A stretch of 17,571 nucleotides of DNA from a virus (lineage: Duplodnaviria > Heunggongvirae > Uroviricota > Caudoviricetes), in the IMG/VR virus record IMGVR_UViG_2740892230_000036; one strand, given 5' to 3'. The notes beneath the pieces are model-generated. The model did not search any database, was not told where the DNA came from, and saw only the letters and a list, made by a program, of their open reading frames with translations. Both the position numbers and the translations under genes were made by a program. Shown here in pieces: positions 4,308 to 12,267 of this stretch. The first letter of the stretch is position 1, and each line of letters begins with the position of its first letter.

Positions 4308-6582
4308 AGCCTCCGGGCGTTTTGTCCCTCCGTCAGCATTTGCCGCAGGCACCGGTGAGACGTTTACCGGTGCTTATGCATGGAACGCGCCACGCGAGGC
4401 CGTCGGGCGCGAAAGACCCCTTACACGTGACGAGATGCGTCAGGTGCAAGGTGTTTTATCCACGATTAATCGCCTGCCTTACTTTTTGCGCTCGCTGTTT
4501 ACTTCACGCTATGACTACATCCGGCGCAATAAAAGCCCGGTGCACGGGTTTTATTTCCTCACATCCACTTTTCAGCGCCGTTTATGGCCGCGTATTGAGC
4601 GCGTGAATCAGCGCCATGAAATGAACACCGACGCGTCGTTGCTGTTTCTGGCAGAGCGTGACCATTATGCGCGTCTGCCGGGGATGAATGACAAGGAGCT
4701 GAAAAAGTTTGCCGCCCGTATCTCATCGCAGCTTTTCATGATGTATGAGGAACTTTGCGATGCATGGGTTGATGCACATGGCGAGAAAGAATCGCTGTTT
4801 ACAGATGAGGCGCAGGCGCATCTGTATGGTCATGTTGCTGGCGCTGCACGTGCTTTCAATATTTCCCCTCTCTACTGGAAAAAATACCGTAAAGGACAGA
4901 TGACCACGAGGCAGGCATATTCTGCCATTGCCCGCCTGTTTAACGATGAGTGGTGGATTAGTCAGCTTAAAGGCCAGCGTATGCGCTGGCATGAGGCGTT
5001 ACTGATTGCTGTCGGGGAGGTCAATAAAGACCGTTCACCTTATGCCAGTAAACATGCCATTCGTGATGTGCGTGCGCGCCGCCAGGCAAATCTGGAATTT
5101 CTTAAATCGTGTGACCTTGAAAACAGGGAAACCGGCGAGCGCATCGACCTTATCAGTAAGGTGATGGGCAGTATTTCTAATCCTGAAATTCGCCGGATGG
5201 AGCTGATGAACACCATTGCCGGTATTGAGCGTTACGCCGCCTCAGAGGGTGATGTGGGGATGTTTATCACGCTTACCGCGCCGTCAAAGTATCACCCGAC
5301 ACGTCAGGTTGGAAAAGGCGAAAATAAAACCGTCCAGCTTAATCACGGCTGGAATGATGAGGCATTTAATCCAAAGGATGCGCAGCGTTATCTCTGCCGT
5401 ATCTGGAGCCTGATGCGCACGGCATTCAAGGATAATGATTTACAGGTCTACGGTTTGCGAGTCGTCGAGCCACACCACGACGGAACGCCGCACTGGCATA
5501 TGATGCTTTTTTGTAATCCACGCCAGCGTAACCAGATTATCGAAATCATGCGTCGCTATGCGCTCAAAGAGGATGGCGACGAAAGAGGAGCCGCGCGAAA
5601 CCGTTTTCAGGCAAAACACCTTAACCGGGGCGGTGCTGCGGGATATATCGCGAAATACATTTCAAAAAATATCGACGGCTATGCACTGGATGGTCAGCTC
5701 GATAACGATACCGGCAGACCGCTGAAAGATACTGCGGCGGCTGTTACCGCATGGGCGTCAACGTGGCGCATCCCGCAATTTAAAACGGTTGGCCTGCCGA
5801 CAATGGGAGCTTACCGTGAGCTACGTAAATTGCCTCGCGGCGTCAGCATTGCTGATGAATTTGACGAACGCGTGGAGGCTGCACGCGCCGCCGCAGACAG
5901 TGGCGATTTTGCGTTGTATATCAGCGCGCAGGGCGGGGCAAATGTCCCGCGCGATTGTCAGACTGTCAGGGTCGCCCGTAGCCCGTCGGATGAAGTTAAC
6001 GAGTACGAGGAAGAAGTCGAGAGAGTGGTCGGCATTTACGCGCCGCATCTCGGCGCGCGTCATATTCATATCACCAGAACGACGGACTGGCGCATCGTGC
6101 CGAAAGTTCCGGTCGTTGAGCCTTTGACTTTAAAAAGCGGCATCGCCGCGCCTCGGAGTCCTGTCAATAACTGTGGAAAGCTCTCCGGTGGTGATACTTC
6201 GTTACCGGTTCCCACACCTTCTGAACATGCCGCAGCCGTGCTTAATCTGGTTGATGACGGTGTTATCGAATGGAATGAGCCAGAGGTCGTGAGGGCGCTC
6301 AGAGGTGCATTAAAACACGGACTGAGAACACCAAATCGTCAGCAGAGAAACGGAAGCCTGTTAAAACCACATGAAATAGCGCCATCGGCCAGACTGACCC
6401 GGTCGGAACGAACGCAAATTACCCGTATCCGCGTTGACCTTGCTCAGAACGGTATCAGGCCGCAGCGATGGGAGATTGAGGCGCTGGCGCGTGGGGCAAC
6501 CGTAAATTATGACGGGAAAAAATTCACGTATCCGGTCGCTGATGAGTGGCCGGGATTCTCAACAGTAATGGAGTGGACATGA
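4297..6582 (+). CDS. A: Rolling-circle replication initiator A (HUH endonuclease), 761 aa
   Basis: ORF track 4255-6582; in-frame ATG at 4297 gives 761 aa, the P2 A length. HUH-type motif (…GTPHWHMMLF…) and paired active-site tyrosines (…GYIAKYISKN…). Confidence 0.92.
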   Translation: MAVKASGRFVPPSAFAAGTGETFTGAYAWNAPREAVGRERPLTRDEMRQVQGVLSTINRLPYFLRSLFTSRYDYIRRNKSPVHGFYFLTSTFQRRLWPRIERVNQRHEMNTDASLLFLAERDHYARLPGMNDKELKKFAARISSQLFMMYEELCDAWVDAHGEKESLFTDEAQAHLYGHVAGAARAFNISPLYWKKYRKGQMTTRQAYSAIARLFNDEWWISQLKGQRMRWHEALLIAVGEVNKDRSPYASKHAIRDVRARRQANLEFLKSCDLENRETGERIDLISKVMGSISNPEIRRMELMNTIAGIERYAASEGDVGMFITLTAPSKYHPTRQVGKGENKTVQLNHGWNDEAFNPKDAQRYLCRIWSLMRTAFKDNDLQVYGLRVVEPHHDGTPHWHMMLFCNPRQRNQIIEIMRRYALKEDGDERGAARNRFQAKHLNRGGAAGYIAKYISKNIDGYALDGQLDNDTGRPLKDTAAAVTAWASTWRIPQFKTVGLPTMGAYRELRKLPRGVSIADEFDERVEAARAAADSGDFALYISAQGGANVPRDCQTVRVARSPSDEVNEYEEEVERVVGIYAPHLGARHIHITRTTDWRIVPKVPVVEPLTLKSGIAAPRSPVNNCGKLSGGDTSLPVPTPSEHAAAVLNLVDDGVIEWNEPEVVRALRGALKHGLRTPNRQQRNGSLLKPHEIAPSARLTRSERTQITRIRVDLAQNGIRPQRWEIEALARGATVNYDGKKFTYPVADEWPGFSTVMEWT
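6148..6167 (+). other. Candidate P2 ori / A-protein nick region inside the A gene
   Basis: gcgcctcggagtcctgtcaa lies in the 3' quarter of A, where the P2 origin is known to reside. The exact nick-site sequence is from memory and unverified. Confidence 0.35.
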
Positions 6583-7034
6583 TGGCAAAAATTCACGAGG
6601 TAAAGCTGCACGCAAAATATTTCGACCTTGTGCTGGAAGGAAAGAAACGCGCAGAGTTTAGGAAAAATGACCGTAATTATGAGCACGGGGACACGTTGAT
6701 TTTGCATGAATGGGTGCAGGGTGTGTATACGGGGCGAAAGGTTGAAGCCCGGATAACAGATGTTACTGACCTGTCAGATTGGCTGGAAGATTATGTCTTG
6801 CTAAGTATTGAGCTGCTTAATACAGGCGCATATGAGATTGTGAACTGGAAAGAACTTAGTGAGCGTGGTCTGGTATTCAGAATTAATCATGAAATTATGC
6901 ATCAGCTCGGCCTTGCTGTTATGTATGAACCAGAGACGGGGATGTCTGGCGGGGCAATGGTTGCCACGGATGGAGCATGGAACTATTCAGATGAACAGAT
7001 GGAGCGTGCACCGCAAAACGGGTGGCTTGGATAA
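6579..7034 (+). CDS. P2 orf91-like protein with ASCH/PUA-like (DUF3850-type) fold, ~151 aa
   Basis: ATG at 6579 overlaps the A stop; motif …KYFDLVLEGKKRAEFRKNDRNYEHGDTLILHEW… is typical of ASCH-like phage proteins. Start could be 6582. Confidence 0.75.
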   Translation: MMAKIHEVKLHAKYFDLVLEGKKRAEFRKNDRNYEHGDTLILHEWVQGVYTGRKVEARITDVTDLSDWLEDYVLLSIELLNTGAYEIVNWKELSERGLVFRINHEIMHQLGLAVMYEPETGMSGGAMVATDGAWNYSDEQMERAPQNGWLG

Positions 7035-7240
7035 TGCACAGAATACCAGGCGAGATACCGCACCATAAAACTAAAAATATCAAGCTGATGGCCATTGTTC
7101 ACCGTCTACAGCAGATTATGGTCAACGAAAATCTGACGCCCGATGAGCTAGTCGGGTGTGCCGAAATAGTCCGGGATAATTACGTATGGCTTAGCTATAT
7201 CGGTCAGTCCAGCGCTGCATCGCCACCACGCAGACGATAG
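7034..7240 (+). CDS. Hypothetical small protein (68 aa) at the hotspot boundary
   Basis: ATG overlaps the orf91 stop (TAATG); backbone-like composition; no recognisable domain. Alternative GTG start at 7022. Confidence 0.5.
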   Translation: MHRIPGEIPHHKTKNIKLMAIVHRLQQIMVNENLTPDELVGCAEIVRDNYVWLSYIGQSSAASPPRRR

Positions 7241-7429
7241 AGAACGCAGCCAGCTCAGGATTGGCGGGGGATAGAATAACGAGCATAGTGATGCGATTAG
7301 ACAAACAGACTGACTGGTACACTTAGGATGGTTATAGTGGTTTCTAAGTGCTTTAGCGATACATCTGGTGGACTGTTTTACCAACCTCAGAGTTAGCTGA
7401 ATTTTTAACAAAATACCATTTTGATAGAT

Positions 7430-7457
7430 TTGCCTAATTTATTAATTAAACTATACT
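7430..7457 (+). promoter_or_regulatory. Candidate sigma70 promoter for the plus-strand cargo operon (-35 TTGCCT 7430-7435, 16-bp spacer, -10 TATACT 7452-7457)
   Basis: Hexamers read directly in the AT-rich leader ~90 bp upstream of the 7549 start. Many alternative AT-rich hexamers exist nearby. Confidence 0.3.
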
Positions 7458-7548
7458 GGACTTATACACAGTGTTCTGTTAATTGTTAGGTTGGTAAGAT
7501 ATTGTGAGGAGGTGATTACTATCTTGGCATCAATCAAGTGGAGGTTAA

Positions 7549-7785
7549 ATGATGAATATATTTGAACGTATTATAGGTAAAGCTGCCATTGAAAAGGAAA
7601 GAGAACTGGCGAGGAGGCTTGAAGCATCTGGAACAAACACTGTTGAGGTGGTAGGTCGAGGCGCGATTATCACGTCTAAAGAAGACTTGGCAAGCTCAGA
7701 TACAGTAAAATTGATGAAAATTAAAGCAAGAAGAATAGTTTCTGAGCAGGTAAAGCAAGAAGAAAAAATGGCTAAAGGGAATTAA
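7549..7785 (+). CDS. Cargo gene 1: small soluble charged protein (78 aa), unknown function
   Basis: SD GTGGAGG 4-7 nt before ATG 7549/7552; AT-rich codon usage unlike the P2 backbone; stop 2 nt before the next gene's ATG. No domain recognised. Confidence 0.75.
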   Translation: MMNIFERIIGKAAIEKERELARRLEASGTNTVEVVGRGAIITSKEDLASSDTVKLMKIKARRIVSEQVKQEEKMAKGN

Positions 7786-7787
7786 TA

Positions 7788-8549
7788 ATGTTTGCTTTAT
7801 TAATTATTCCATTACTTGTGAGTGGTTATATTGTATTAACCACTCATCCTTATCATTTCTATAGATTACACCGTTATGATGGGCAGTTGTTATATATGAA
7901 GTCAGCCGCCTTTGGTCTGTGGTGTTTTATATGGACATTGATTATAGCTTACTTAATAAAATGGATATGTCCGAGCTTCCATCCTGTCACGATGGTTCGG
8001 GAACAATTAGATCTCAAACTTAGTGATAATGGTACTGAAAGAATCATAGGATGGATGATTTTACTTTCATGTGGATCGATATTTTTGGCTTGGATATGGA
8101 GTGCCGGTGCTAGATATTTGGTTATATATAGAGCTAAAATTATAAATTATATCCAAGGGGTAAAGGCTGCCAATATTGATTATGAGAATCTTGTCATGCT
8201 AAGGATGAGGCAAGAGCTTATTAATGATAATCCAATGGATGAAATATTTTTTGATTCGTTAGTTGATAGACGTTCAATACTTATTACGTTGCAAAATAAA
8301 AAGACATATGTAGGAATTGTTAACGCATTAGGTGAGCCTAACGAGAAAGAAGGACCTAACCAGTATGTTTCAATCTATCCTATTATCTCTGGGTATAGAG
8401 ATAAGGATTCATTGAAAGTAATCTTGGTGAATGAATATAGAGAACTTGAGGATGCTGATACTAGTATCATCTTTCCACTAAAAGAAATTTCGCAAGTTTC
8501 TTGGTTTGATATGGATATTCATAAAATAGTTGAAAATAATAAGGTGTAG
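7788..8549 (+). CDS. Cargo gene 2: membrane protein with 3 N-terminal TM helices plus ~145-aa C-terminal soluble domain (253 aa), unknown function
   Basis: Hydrophobic stretches FALLIIPLLVSGYIVLTT, AAFGLWCFIWTLIIAYLIKWI and IIGWMILLSCGSIFLAWIWSAGA, followed by a hydrophilic domain. Operonic with the 78-aa gene. Confidence 0.85.
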   Translation: MFALLIIPLLVSGYIVLTTHPYHFYRLHRYDGQLLYMKSAAFGLWCFIWTLIIAYLIKWICPSFHPVTMVREQLDLKLSDNGTERIIGWMILLSCGSIFLAWIWSAGARYLVIYRAKIINYIQGVKAANIDYENLVMLRMRQELINDNPMDEIFFDSLVDRRSILITLQNKKTYVGIVNALGEPNEKEGPNQYVSIYPIISGYRDKDSLKVILVNEYRELEDADTSIIFPLKEISQVSWFDMDIHKIVENNKV

Positions 8550-8552
8550 TAA

Positions 8553-8577
8553 ATGGTCACCTATAAAAGGTGACCAT
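8553..8577. terminator. Bidirectional intrinsic-terminator-like hairpin between the convergent cargo operons
   Basis: Perfect 9-bp stem atggtcacc / ggtgaccat with loop tataaaa, 4 nt after the plus-strand stop (8549) and 6 nt before the minus-strand stop (8583-8585). T-rich tract ttattttt follows on the plus strand; A/T-rich on the other side. Confidence 0.5.
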
Positions 8578-8582
8578 AATGC

Positions 8583-10847
8583 TTATTTTTGACGAATCCT
8601 GATTTTTGGTTGTTCACGAACAACAATATCAGTTTCTTTCCAACCAAGATTATTTATTTCAACCTCGGCTTCGTTGTAGACTGTAGTAGAATTGGCAAGA
8701 GATCTTAACGTAATAGCCAATACAGCACGTTGAGGTGAAGATAGAGGCTCTTGCTCTGCTCGTCTCTGAACATCAAGTTTAAGTCTCCATTGCTCCCCAT
8801 TTATACCTTGCGGAAATTGTTTTCTATAAACTTTGACTGGAGACCATTTGAAGCCATTTTCTATCAGTACCTTTTCAAATAATTCACTCTTTTCTTTTAT
8901 TTGTGGAATTTTTCCGCTATGTATCCATTTAGCGTTAACTGGATCATAAGTGTAAGTCCCGAATGACACATCCACATTAGAACGGCAATATTCAGATGGG
9001 TAGTCATAATCAAGCGGTGGAGAATAAACGAGTGTCATAATAATTTCACCTGTGAATTTTCCATCCTCAGTACGTAATGACTGTGGTATTACAAATGGCG
9101 TTCTACTGAATTCAATACCTTCTCGGGTATCTATTTCAAATAGAAATGTAATCTCATTTTTATTGCAACCAATAATATCATTTATATGATCGCTTGGGCG
9201 TCCAAATCCTTGATAATTAAACGCATAATGCTCCGTTTTGGCTGGTGAGTTTTTTAACGCAGAATGAATTAATAGTGCCTTGATACGTTCAGGCGATGGT
9301 GAAATAGAACCATTAACATCTAGTTCATGCCACAGTGATGCCGCTAAACTTGAGATTAACGGTGCTGATAAACTTGTGCCAATACTTTCGCAAAGAGCAT
9401 TGTCCTCGCCAATAGCTATGATTCCGGTATGTTCACAGTTTAATTTACTGTCACAATTACCTCCAAAGTGATTTATCTCTGGTTTGGGTATAAAGGCTGG
9501 GCCGGGACCTCTTCTAGAAAAAGATGAAGGTTCAAATCTTTTGACCACAGAGTCAGACGATTCTAAATGGGCAACTGAGCCAACAGTTAATGAACGAACA
9601 GAATCTGCGGGGGCTGATATTCTGTCATGCCCACCTAATTCTTGAGGAGGCCAGGTTCGTTGAGGATCATAAATGTAGTTGCCGGATGCTACGACGAAAA
9701 GACAATCATGCTCATCATGAAGTGCATTTAAAAAATGCCCCAATTCAGAGAAGCTGTCTTCAGAACATGGGGATTGACAACCTAATGACAGGTTCCATAC
9801 ACGTACTTCTGGATAGGTGGTCACAGCCTCTCGGATAGCTTTCATTAATTGTGGCAATTTGAGCGTACCATCTTTGGGAAAGGCTGCAACATCAACAATT
9901 TCAGCTTGGCATTGAGGAAAACCAGCATAGTTATTCAACCATCTTCCATTAATTGCTAAACTTGCAACCATGTTCCCATGAGAATAGTCGTGTTCTCCTT
10001 TTACTAAATCTAAACTATCCCAAATCCATGGCCTAAGTATGTTGTTATTGGGATCGACTCCGCTATCTATAATTCCGAGTAGTGGATAATGTTTATCCTC
10101 TTGAGGTAAGGGAAAATCATCTAGGTCTAGAGTTTCAGCAGGAATATATTGCGATACTGTATGAGTAAGACCAAATGTTGGCATAGGTTCTAATTTTCGT
10201 ATGCCAATAAAACTTGCCAGTTGGGCGATGTTATCATTCCCTTTTACTTCATATATACTCAAATCTGAACTGATATCATACTTTTTGGGTTTTTGTATTC
10301 CTAGTTCATCTGCAAATTCCATTAATTCTTTGTCGATACTGCGGTTAGTTGTTCTATCTTTATGGTCAAAGAGTTTCAGAAGAAAACTATCTGATTTATT
10401 TTTATCTATAACATCATGGTTAAGACTAAAAGGTTCGATCTTTTCAATTACAGCAATATGTACTGTCCCATTATGAGAATTAGTGCTATTTTCAATTTTT
10501 TTGCGAAGTTGTGCTAACCCTTTTTCAGTAACACTTATAAGTAATTCTCCAAAATTATCACTGCCTATTACGGGACATGTATTATCACCTAATAGGCTTG
10601 ATGGGCGATGTGACTTAGCAAGAGCTTTTTCATGAAGAGTAACTCTAGCCACCGCCGGTATATTGGGCCATTTTTTAAATGAGCTCTGGAAAAAATTTTT
10701 AACGTCATCGACTTCTTGTTTGAGTCTATTTTTTAGACTAGTTGTTACTGTTCGGATAGGTTGTTTCTTTCCGAAATTATATGTTTTTTCAGTAAAATCT
10801 TGAGGTGTCGCCTCAATTATTTTTATTGGTCTTTCTTTGTTACTCAT
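8583..10847 (-). CDS. Cargo gene 4: subtilisin-like serine protease (peptidase S8), 754 aa, with uncharacterised N- and C-terminal extensions; IetS-like
   Basis: Catalytic motifs in canonical order: Asp (…LLGIIDSGVD…, ~D261), His (…DYSHGNMVASLA…, ~H290), oxyanion Asn (…VVASGNY…), Ser (…IGTSLSAPL…, ~S492; codon at 9372-9374). Start ATG overlaps the ATPase stop (ATGA). Confidence 0.88.
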   Translation of the reverse strand: MSNKERPIKIIEATPQDFTEKTYNFGKKQPIRTVTTSLKNRLKQEVDDVKNFFQSSFKKWPNIPAVARVTLHEKALAKSHRPSSLLGDNTCPVIGSDNFGELLISVTEKGLAQLRKKIENSTNSHNGTVHIAVIEKIEPFSLNHDVIDKNKSDSFLLKLFDHKDRTTNRSIDKELMEFADELGIQKPKKYDISSDLSIYEVKGNDNIAQLASFIGIRKLEPMPTFGLTHTVSQYIPAETLDLDDFPLPQEDKHYPLLGIIDSGVDPNNNILRPWIWDSLDLVKGEHDYSHGNMVASLAINGRWLNNYAGFPQCQAEIVDVAAFPKDGTLKLPQLMKAIREAVTTYPEVRVWNLSLGCQSPCSEDSFSELGHFLNALHDEHDCLFVVASGNYIYDPQRTWPPQELGGHDRISAPADSVRSLTVGSVAHLESSDSVVKRFEPSSFSRRGPGPAFIPKPEINHFGGNCDSKLNCEHTGIIAIGEDNALCESIGTSLSAPLISSLAASLWHELDVNGSISPSPERIKALLIHSALKNSPAKTEHYAFNYQGFGRPSDHINDIIGCNKNEITFLFEIDTREGIEFSRTPFVIPQSLRTEDGKFTGEIIMTLVYSPPLDYDYPSEYCRSNVDVSFGTYTYDPVNAKWIHSGKIPQIKEKSELFEKVLIENGFKWSPVKVYRKQFPQGINGEQWRLKLDVQRRAEQEPLSSPQRAVLAITLRSLANSTTVYNEAEVEINNLGWKETDIVVREQPKIRIRQK

Positions 10848-12007
10848 AATATCTCTCTATAGTTCTTAGTTAGCCTTGACACTTTAGCATTTGAAAGCCC
10901 TAGTATTTTTGCTATCTTTCGTATTGTAAATCTTTTGGGATTGTATTCTCTGAGAGTGGTCACAATCTTTATAAGTAAATTATCTTCTTCATCAAATGTA
11001 ACTCCCTTCGCTTCTAAGATAGCCTCGACTAAAAATCGGGTATCGATTTGTTTATTATTGTAAACCAGAGCATGTCGCTCAGATCTTAAGCAGCATTGTT
11101 CTATAAATGAGCAGTTTAGCCCTGAGGATATTTCCGCAAGGTCATCAACAAAATCGTCATATGTGGCTTTTATGTTTGAATATTGTTCAAATAGTTGTTT
11201 TCTGACTTCAAAATCAGGCAATCCAATAGATATTCTATACTCAAAGCGCCTCCAAACTGCGCTATCTAGAAGATTTTCATGATTACTTGCAGCAATCAAT
11301 ATTGTTTCTTCAGGTAGATTGTCAATATTTTGCAATAAAGAAACCACCACCCTCTTCAGTTCACCTAACTCATGCTGATCATCTCTAGCCTTTGCTAGAG
11401 AATCTAGTTCATCTAGAAATAAAACACATGGTGCTTTACTTGCATACTCAAATAGCTGCCTGATATTTTTAGAAGTAGACCCCAGATATGATGAGACTAA
11501 GGAGTCACATCTTGCAGTAAGAAGCGGTAAATTTAGACAGGATGCAATATATTTTGATGTCAAGGTTTTACCACAACCTGGTGGCCCATATAAAATCATA
11601 GAGGATGTCACGCCAAGACCGGCATCCTTTAATTCTTTAGCTCGTTCAGTGAAAGTCAAAAATTCTTTAATTTTTTTCAGAGTGCTATCTTTCAACAATG
11701 GGAGTTGAATTTCAGAAGACGGTTGAGTTACGTCTGCTAAATCAAATTTAGTTTCTTTATCTACAGGTAATGTATCAAGACGTTCAAAAATAGGTGATGT
11801 ACTACGTGATACTTTCTGCAAGTTAAACGTGTTTTTATCTTGAATACTGCCTCTAATGGCTGAAGCAAGCTCAGGCAGCCCCATAGAATCATAGGAACGC
11901 GCGAGTTTCGAAGCCTGCCGAACAAAAGCAACTTTATCCCCTTTGAGTCCAAGACTGATAAGCTGCGAAAGTATCTCGTTTGTGGTCATTTGTGATACAA
12001 ACCTCAT
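10844..12007 (-). CDS. Cargo gene 3: AAA+ ATPase (387 aa) with C-terminal HTH-like tail; IetA-like
   Basis: Walker A …ILYGPPGCGKTL… (K~147), Walker B …CVLFLDELDSL…, sensor-1 …IAASN…, Arg-finger region …VWRRF…. C-terminus …IRKIAKILGLSNAKVSRLTKNY… resembles a helix-turn-helix. Alternative start at Met7 (11989). Confidence 0.88.
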   Translation of the reverse strand: MRFVSQMTTNEILSQLISLGLKGDKVAFVRQASKLARSYDSMGLPELASAIRGSIQDKNTFNLQKVSRSTSPIFERLDTLPVDKETKFDLADVTQPSSEIQLPLLKDSTLKKIKEFLTFTERAKELKDAGLGVTSSMILYGPPGCGKTLTSKYIASCLNLPLLTARCDSLVSSYLGSTSKNIRQLFEYASKAPCVLFLDELDSLAKARDDQHELGELKRVVVSLLQNIDNLPEETILIAASNHENLLDSAVWRRFEYRISIGLPDFEVRKQLFEQYSNIKATYDDFVDDLAEISSGLNCSFIEQCCLRSERHALVYNNKQIDTRFLVEAILEAKGVTFDEEDNLLIKIVTTLREYNPKRFTIRKIAKILGLSNAKVSRLTKNYREIL

Positions 12008-12248
12008 TAATCTGTTGTCTAAATGGCTTATAGGTGAGACAAATTTCTATTTTAATGTAGTTTATATGTATTTTGGTGAAACGAACACTATGTTTTACAT
12101 AAATCTTTCAGGTTTGGAGTTCTTGGAGGGCATAGAGTTGCATCAATTTGCATTCTAATTAGACTTTTTTATTGCTATCGTATTCTACATGTGACTAGGT
12201 CTGCCCTTCCTGATGCGTTTGCATTAAAACCGCCCCATGAAGCGGGCG

Positions 12249-12267
12249 GGCGAGGCGGGGAAAGCAC
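12249..12267. other. P2 cos (19-nt cohesive-end sequence)
   Basis: ggcgaggcggggaaagcac matches the P2 cohesive end as I recall it, and sits between the cargo and Q exactly where cos lies in an integrated P2. Confidence 0.8.

Follow-up and report, generated by a model that had tools for sequence, protein, structure and literature searches.

Our results indicate that a virus record of 17,571 nucleotides (nt), IMG/VR IMGVR_UViG_2740892230_000036, carries at its P2 tin/old locus a foreign insert of four genes, which is probably made of two autonomous two-gene modules, placed tail to tail and inherited as one mobile cassette in a P2 hotspot. The leftward module would be the abortive-infection system ietAS, and the rightward one a toxin-antitoxin-like pair, a small protein with a membrane protein, that could work as a membrane effector or in the exclusion of other phages. 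The whole of this stretch, called here the window, is a P2-like (Peduovirus) prophage with the order int, C, cox, A, Orf91 homologue, insert, cos, Q, P, O and N. The island as cargo, the P2 hotspot and ietAS were already known. What is new is that two genes annotated as 'hypothetical' are recognised as members of a large unnamed family of small protein plus membrane-Sm protein, and that an ietAS lineage was found to be tied to this family on several different mobile backbones.

A foreign insert at the tin/old locus

A sequence-only reading of the window had described an AT-rich island of about 5 kb within a GC-balanced backbone, with limits at 7242-12248. The guanine-plus-cytosine (GC) content is indeed 0.366 over 7260-12212, against 0.486 in the left flank and 0.556 in the right. 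In sliding windows it drops from about 0.50-0.57 to 0.33-0.43 at roughly 7250-12250 and recovers beyond, and the highest 1-kb window within the insert (0.410) lies below the lowest one outside (0.428). At third codon positions the four island genes have a GC content of 0.25-0.32, compared with 0.37-0.72 in the backbone genes. The borders were set by pairwise blastn against Yersinia phage vB_YpM_50 and Escherichia phage vB_EcoM-12474III, two Peduoviruses with other cargo, to which homology ends at 7253 and restarts at 12220. The insert thus spans 7254-12219 (4,966 bp), and the limits first proposed were right approximately, the true ones lying 12 nt and 29 nt inside them.

The position between Orf91 and cos was also borne out. 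The DUF3850 gene (6546-7034) has 96% identity to P2 Orf91 across 75 amino acids (aa), and the annotated P2 cosR 19-mer, GGCGAGGCGGGGAAAGCAC, is matched exactly to the right of the insert. The counterpart interval of P2, from Orf91 to cos, carries tin and old, running leftward from beside cos. The order A, Orf91 homologue, 72-aa open reading frame (ORF), insert, cos, Q fits the cargo interval between gpA and gpQ, which, as the sequence-only reading had stated, is a documented defence hotspot of P2 (Rousset et al. 2022, PMC9122126); the gene arrangement of the island is already present in Table S5A of that study. No gene of the island resembles Old or Tin, since blastp against these two gave a best E value of 0.38 and PADLOC returned no Old-type match. 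With its foreign composition and its exact junctions against Peduoviruses that carry different cargo, the insert is horizontally acquired foreign cargo that replaces old/tin.

Among 5,426 complete E. coli genomes, 12 contain the insert at an identity of at least 99.4%, and in each of them it is complete. Several hundred draft contigs encode the island proteins, and P2-like prophages of Enterobacter and Citrobacter contain copies with 79% DNA identity. A search of the insert flanks for a transposon-type signature found no direct or inverted repeats, and an Rfam scan of the island gave no RNA family.

Gene calls confirmed four genes in two convergent operons (Table 1). PADLOC, applied to the four proteins, matched IetS and IetA and left the other two unmatched. 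The expectation of defence cargo is thus upheld by two of the four genes, ietA and ietS, which are in kind an experimentally validated anti-phage system.

The leftward operon, a predicted ietAS

By its sequence, the leftward operon is ietAS, in the form of a divergent subfamily rather than a different family. IetS matches the PADLOC model PDLC02197 (E 1.1e-273) over model positions 1-747 of 749, and Pfam Peptidase_S8 (E 7e-24); the catalytic residues D261, H290 and S492 and the oxyanion residue N352 are all present. IetA matches PDLC02196 (E 9.1e-132) and Pfam AAA (E 1e-31), with an intact Walker A motif, GPPGCGKT (141-148), and Walker B motif, VLFLDELD (195-202). On the same strand, ietA lies upstream of ietS, and the stop of the former overlaps the start of the latter as ATGA (10844-10847). 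A start of ietA at 11989, which gives 381 aa, is favoured by RefSeq and by the homologues. Neither protein reaches its NCBIfam equivalog cutoff (782 bits where IteS_antiphage requires 900, and 387 bits where IteA_antiphage requires 510), for which reason RefSeq labels them merely 'S8 family peptidase' and 'AAA family ATPase'. Their identity to canonical E. coli IteS and IteA (L096) is about 34-36%.

Gao et al. reportedly validated ietAS as an anti-phage system in 2020. According to the accounts of Yamamoto 2009 given in PMC8562856 and PMC13069673, ietAS was first described as a protease-toxin and ATPase-antitoxin pair that serves plasmid stability in pTiC58. The system acts by abortive infection and becomes toxic upon expression of a particular phage protein (bioRxiv 10.1101/2022.08.27.505566), and in E. 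coli it is frequently prophage-borne (bioRxiv 10.1101/2022.08.21.504612). Its molecular mechanism is still unknown (PMC13069673).

The rightward operon, a small protein and a membrane protein with a predicted Sm-like domain

Neither protein of the rightward operon has a match in PADLOC, Pfam or NCBIfam, and both match only PHROGs of unknown function, phrog_37504 in the case of the 78-aa protein. All database names for the pair are 'hypothetical protein', and no description of it was found in the literature searched. The 253-aa protein has hydrophobic segments at about 1-21, 41-62 and 89-110, with a predicted topology of N-terminus out and C-terminus in. Its AlphaFold model (predicted local distance difference test, pLDDT, 79) contains the membrane helices, a long helix and a C-terminal barrel (about 149-240). 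Sm/LSm proteins were the only matches in Foldseek, and a fold search of BFVD gave weak Sm-like matches only. The modelled domain has the N-terminal helix and the strongly bent five-stranded beta-sheet barrel of the Sm/LSm fold, and is predicted to be a cytoplasmic Sm/Hfq-like barrel. A channel of the MscS type, which combines three transmembrane (TM) helices with an Sm-like beta domain, was considered and rejected, given that the protein shows no MS_channel signal and no whole-chain likeness to any solved channel.

An exhaustive profile search with the 253-aa protein returned 2,572 clusters (50% identity) at E<=1e-3, and 1,229 at E<=1e-10; all family clusters are 240-340 aa long and without enzymatic fusions. 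Scanning one genome per species yielded 178 relatives in Gamma-, Beta- and Alphaproteobacteria. A small homologous ORF of 45-93 aa ends a few nt from the membrane gene in 88 of 93 loci; it stands upstream, with a spacing of -13 to +12 nt, and the core of the small-protein alignment reads (K/R)VVGRGT(L/I)..D..E(V/I)..S..F...A..IV. The pair is a large conserved family without a Pfam model or a name.

Some lambdoid prophages of E. coli and Klebsiella carry a free-standing pair at their ends, immediately next to the integrase (one E. coli variant is present on 841 contigs), and such pairs also stand at the genome ends of Cronobacter phage phiES15 and Pseudomonas phages vB_Pae_U5 and U6. In two other P2-like phages, the pair occupies the same hotspot, between gpA and the portal gene: it adjoins a bSEFIR TIR protein in Klebsiella phage ST15-OXA48phi14.1, while in SEN4 and SEN5 of Salmonella its neighbours are a methyltransferase and cos. 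Many other genomes, of Pseudomonas above all, have it as an isolated 1-kb insertion amid housekeeping genes. This distribution resembles that of selfish modules of the toxin-antitoxin type which are repeatedly recruited to phage cargo sites.

Two further settings may be described separately. In the Pseudomonas fluorescens group (L050-L066 and L092, about 7810-8830), the pair has a fixed chromosomal site, behind a conserved gene of 651 aa. There is a 13-nt overlap between the membrane gene and the small ORF, the latter with a D-x-SW(A/G)C tail that is conserved. Genes further downstream vary, and the site may be a chromosomal variable hotspot. A free-standing pair of Klebsiella (L012, 621-6228) adjoins an integrase and a three-gene cluster of SMC_N/AAA_23, MComp1 and CTD1. 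These domains are linked with predicted conflict systems and point to a defence island at that place.

Linkage of the two modules

ietAS is nearby in just 3 of 80 species-level loci of the pair, and canonical iteAS is without the pair; both modules are therefore generally autonomous. Within one lineage they go together. Homologues of IetS form a clade at 51% identity or more to the island protein, separated by a gap from the next ones, which have at most 46%, and at every sampled IetS locus of at least 58% identity the pair lies convergently downstream, in four kinds of element. The linked loci are the P2 island and its 90% relatives, a second P2-like lineage without the DUF3850 gene (L111, IetS 63%), an integrase/AlpA island of Salmonella and Citrobacter (L007-L010, 60%), a Rac-like lambdoid prophage of E. 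coli (L095, 60%) and a locus of Scandinavium (L018, 59%). The members of the clade at 56% and 51%, and the outgroups at 44-46%, are without the pair. All four proteins share a common three-clade structure, with pairwise-identity correlations of r 0.98-0.99, and the gap between the convergent stops stays at 24-54 nt across the linked loci.

The clade of linked pairs is found without ietAS solely in two copies of Arsenophonus (L017, 8001-8282; L019, 7968-8207), with 69% and 59% identity, both with a truncated membrane gene (93 and 79 aa); they look like decaying relics in symbiont genomes. The 216-aa and 57-aa genes downstream of the 51% IetS (L106) were examined as a substitute pair and rejected, as they encode a secreted protein and a lipoprotein that are unrelated. 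In the Rac-like cassette (L095, 7507-7632), a Hok/Gef family toxin gene stands immediately upstream of the pair, and toxin modules are therefore stacked there.

Such linkage bears on the strongest alternative, namely that the four genes are one integrated system in which the pair is an obligate accessory of this ietAS lineage. IetS might cleave the small protein, or the linker of the Sm protein, to unleash a membrane effector, or the pair might serve as sensor or regulator for IetA and IetS. The presence of the pair at every sampled locus at or above the 58% mark, whether in either of the P2-like lineages, in the Rac-like lambdoid prophage or in the integrase/AlpA island, argues for such a system, as do the shared divergence of all four genes and the constant gap between them. 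A partial island was never found within E. coli, and there is a precedent in ietHAS, where ietAS recruited an essential ietH (PMC13069673). However, each half is autonomous in most genomes, the IetS relatives at 56% and 51% do without the pair, and the canonical two-gene ietAS suffices for defence. The two operons are, moreover, not co-transcribed, because they are convergent, have their own upstream regions and are separated by a likely terminator. On balance, we regard a single four-gene system as unlikely.

Proposed mechanism and its standing

Under the interpretation of two autonomous modules in one cassette, the AAA+ ATPase IetA would hold back the S8 protease IetS in an uninfected lysogen, and a phage-encoded trigger would free IetS, whose proteolysis would halt the infected cell; these steps are known for the family and are carried over to this member. 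The mechanism proposed for the pair is derived from topology, fold and gene layout. It would most likely be a second, independent membrane effector of the toxin-antitoxin-like kind, or an exclusion module. Sm folds generally oligomerise into rings, and the Sm domain of the 253-aa protein would do so beneath the membrane, where it may bind a ligand. The small partner would silence the membrane protein, and its loss or displacement on infection would let the TM bundle compromise the membrane. The two modules were probably co-selected as a pair in this lineage, for wider phage coverage or as a mutual back-up, and the cassette would move between phage cargo sites. We infer a role in defence for the pair: since it recurs at prophage ends and in P2 hotspots, it may reasonably be considered as a candidate module, so far undescribed, of exclusion or abortive infection.

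Several observations weigh against this interpretation. The modelled fold and the topology are the sole basis for proposing ring formation, ligand binding and membrane damage. The AlphaFold2 model of the small protein, built on a shallow alignment, is a helix, a beta-hairpin and a helix with a pLDDT of 54, too low for a fold search. The 117 nearest neighbours of free-standing pairs, taken outside Enterobacterales, are mostly housekeeping genes, with no clear enrichment in defence genes; they include one CBASS cyclase, one reverse transcriptase, four integrases and two portals. The NCBIfam scores below cutoff mark a divergent ietAS subfamily, for which activity is only predicted. Finally, strict linkage over about 40% protein divergence exceeds what would be expected from co-residence in a hotspot, and favours a single system.

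Beyond these possibilities, it is conceivable, although we lean against it, that the pair is a new widespread family of abortive infection or exclusion (about 2,500 clusters at 50% identity, in Proteobacteria) that is mechanistically coupled to ietAS here, for example as its membrane effector or as a substrate of IetS. Quite improbable is the proposal that the pair is an addiction (toxin-antitoxin) or lysogenic-conversion membrane cassette and not an anti-phage one, with ietAS here perhaps mainly stabilising the prophage: it is typical of toxin-antitoxin pairs that a small gene precedes, in tight coupling, one for a larger membrane protein, the many isolated 1-kb copies and the discovery of ietAS as a plasmid-stability system point the same way, but the pair has been recruited repeatedly to the cos-proximal hotspot of P2 (beside ietAS, bSEFIR and a methyltransferase) and to moron positions at prophage ends, unknown cargo tested in P4 hotspots was defensive in 6 of 8 cases (PMC13586616), and addiction and abortive infection can coexist.

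An ietAS that stays tied to a membrane/Sm-like pair on several mobile backbones offers a natural experiment on the unexplained mechanism of ietAS. If the pair were required by ietAS or processed by IetS, it would point to the protease substrate and the killing step, and, if the coupled interpretation were true, the island would be a four-component variant of ietAS and a handle on its mechanism. If there were neither coupling nor a new module, the island would be one more catalogued known defence cargo at the P2 hotspot.

Features of the insert and its flanks

Table 1. Features of the insert and of the adjoining backbone, in window coordinates
Feature	Position	Strand	Basis or remark
Backbone left flank: Orf91 homologue (DUF3850/ASCH and DUF7415, 162 aa) and 72-aa ORF (phrog_11386)	6546-7240	+	
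Cargo insert in the gpA-gpQ (tin/old) hotspot	7254-12219		Homology break, low GC
Upstream region of the rightward operon	7254-7548	+	Weak sigma-70-like sites at 7430-7457 and 7310-7338
Small partner, 78 aa, soluble	7549-7785	+	VVGRG(A/T) core motif; possible true start 7552
253-aa membrane protein, 3 TM and predicted Sm/Hfq-like beta-barrel	7788-8549	+	
Hairpin, perfect 10-bp stem, ATGGTCACC-TATAAAA-GGTGACCAT	8553-8577		Within the 33-nt gap between the convergent stops
ietS, predicted S8 subtilase-family protease, 754 aa, putative toxin/effector	8583-10847	-	PADLOC, Pfam
ietA, predicted AAA+ ATPase, putative antitoxin/regulator	10844-12007	-	387 aa from the first ATG
AT-rich leader, presumed ietAS promoter region	12008-12219	-	cos-proximal edge of the insert
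cos cohesive-end sequence	12249-12267	+	Exact P2 cosR match; backbone, outside the insert

T-rich DNA follows the hairpin between the convergent genes on both strands, and the hairpin is likely a bidirectional terminator; terminator-like sites numbered 10, against 3.4 expected. Ahead of the small gene there is a Shine-Dalgarno sequence, GGAGG (7540-7544), and an imperfect 24-nt inverted repeat (7378-7401 and 7474-7497, 79% complementary), which flanks the best promoter-like site and could be an operator or a leader structure. The promoter scan gave 18 sites with 17.7 expected, and, since this count is at chance level, the placement of promoters is by inference only. The ietAS leader has the position and polarity of the old-tin promoter of P2, and no strong consensus promoter was found in 12008-12219.

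In other Peduoviruses, the left-flank genes have 95-96% DNA identity. The Orf91 homologue is 162 aa long and ends in a DUF7415 domain, while P2 Orf91 has 109 aa and only the N-terminal 75 aa align, so that Orf91 is C-terminally extended in this lineage. The 72-aa ORF (7022-7240) has 13 nt in common with the end of the DUF3850 gene; some Peduoviruses have it as part of their backbone (e.g. vB_EcoM-12474III gp07), and P2 lacks it. Directly left of cos, at 12230-12249, a GC-rich hairpin, CCGCCCGCTTCATGGGGCGG, belongs to the backbone and not to the insert, and is kept in the P2 and P4 cos regions within the construct sequences of Rousset et al. In E. coli SC480 (L001, 1-3539), the same prophage adjoins yegS/yegR with the integrase at the junction, which gives its chromosomal attachment context.

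Comparison with known systems

The predicted barrel of the 253-aa protein has no sequence similarity to Sm, Hfq or WYL barrels, such as Hfq itself and the WYL sensors BrxR, CapW and DriD. It is fused to three TM helices instead of a DNA-binding domain, and its ring formation and ligand binding are putative. What RexAB, Kiwa KwaAB, Rst hydrolase-3TM and 2TM-1TM-TIR share with the pair is the combination of two genes, with a multi-pass membrane protein among the products, and a location at prophage ends or in hotspots of P2/P4. The island pair differs from them in having no profile match to these systems and no partner enzyme, and we know of no cytoplasmic Sm-like barrel described for any of them. 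Rst_2TM-1TM-TIR of the P2-like phage AC1 was considered and rejected, as PADLOC matched neither the island pair nor its distant relative in Klebsiella phage ST15-OXA48phi14.1, where the TIR protein next to the pair is bSEFIR (E 7e-103). Bandua, Aernus, Toga, Reve, Crouga and Hailong (PMC13586616) were also compared, and none shares the architecture of the pair.

ietHAS (Liu-DS4) is, like the island, an ietAS lineage with an extra conserved module (PMC13069673). Its addition is a co-transcribed, essential SNF2 helicase, whereas that of the island is a convergent membrane/Sm-like pair, for which a requirement is only proposed. With ietAS (Gao_Iet) in general, the island shares the two-gene operon of ietA followed by an overlapping ietS, the full-length PADLOC matches, the Walker motifs and S8 triad, and the prophage location, but its subfamily is invariably followed by the convergent small and TM-Sm genes, which canonical ietAS does without. 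Old and Tin differ in biochemistry from the island proteins, the first being an OLD-family nuclease/ATPase and the second acting on the single-stranded DNA-binding protein of T-even phages. Although these P2 proteins have no sequence similarity to those of the island, old/tin and the island have in common the Orf91-cos locus, the leftward polarity from beside cos, and the nature of a prophage-expressed cargo that excludes other phages.

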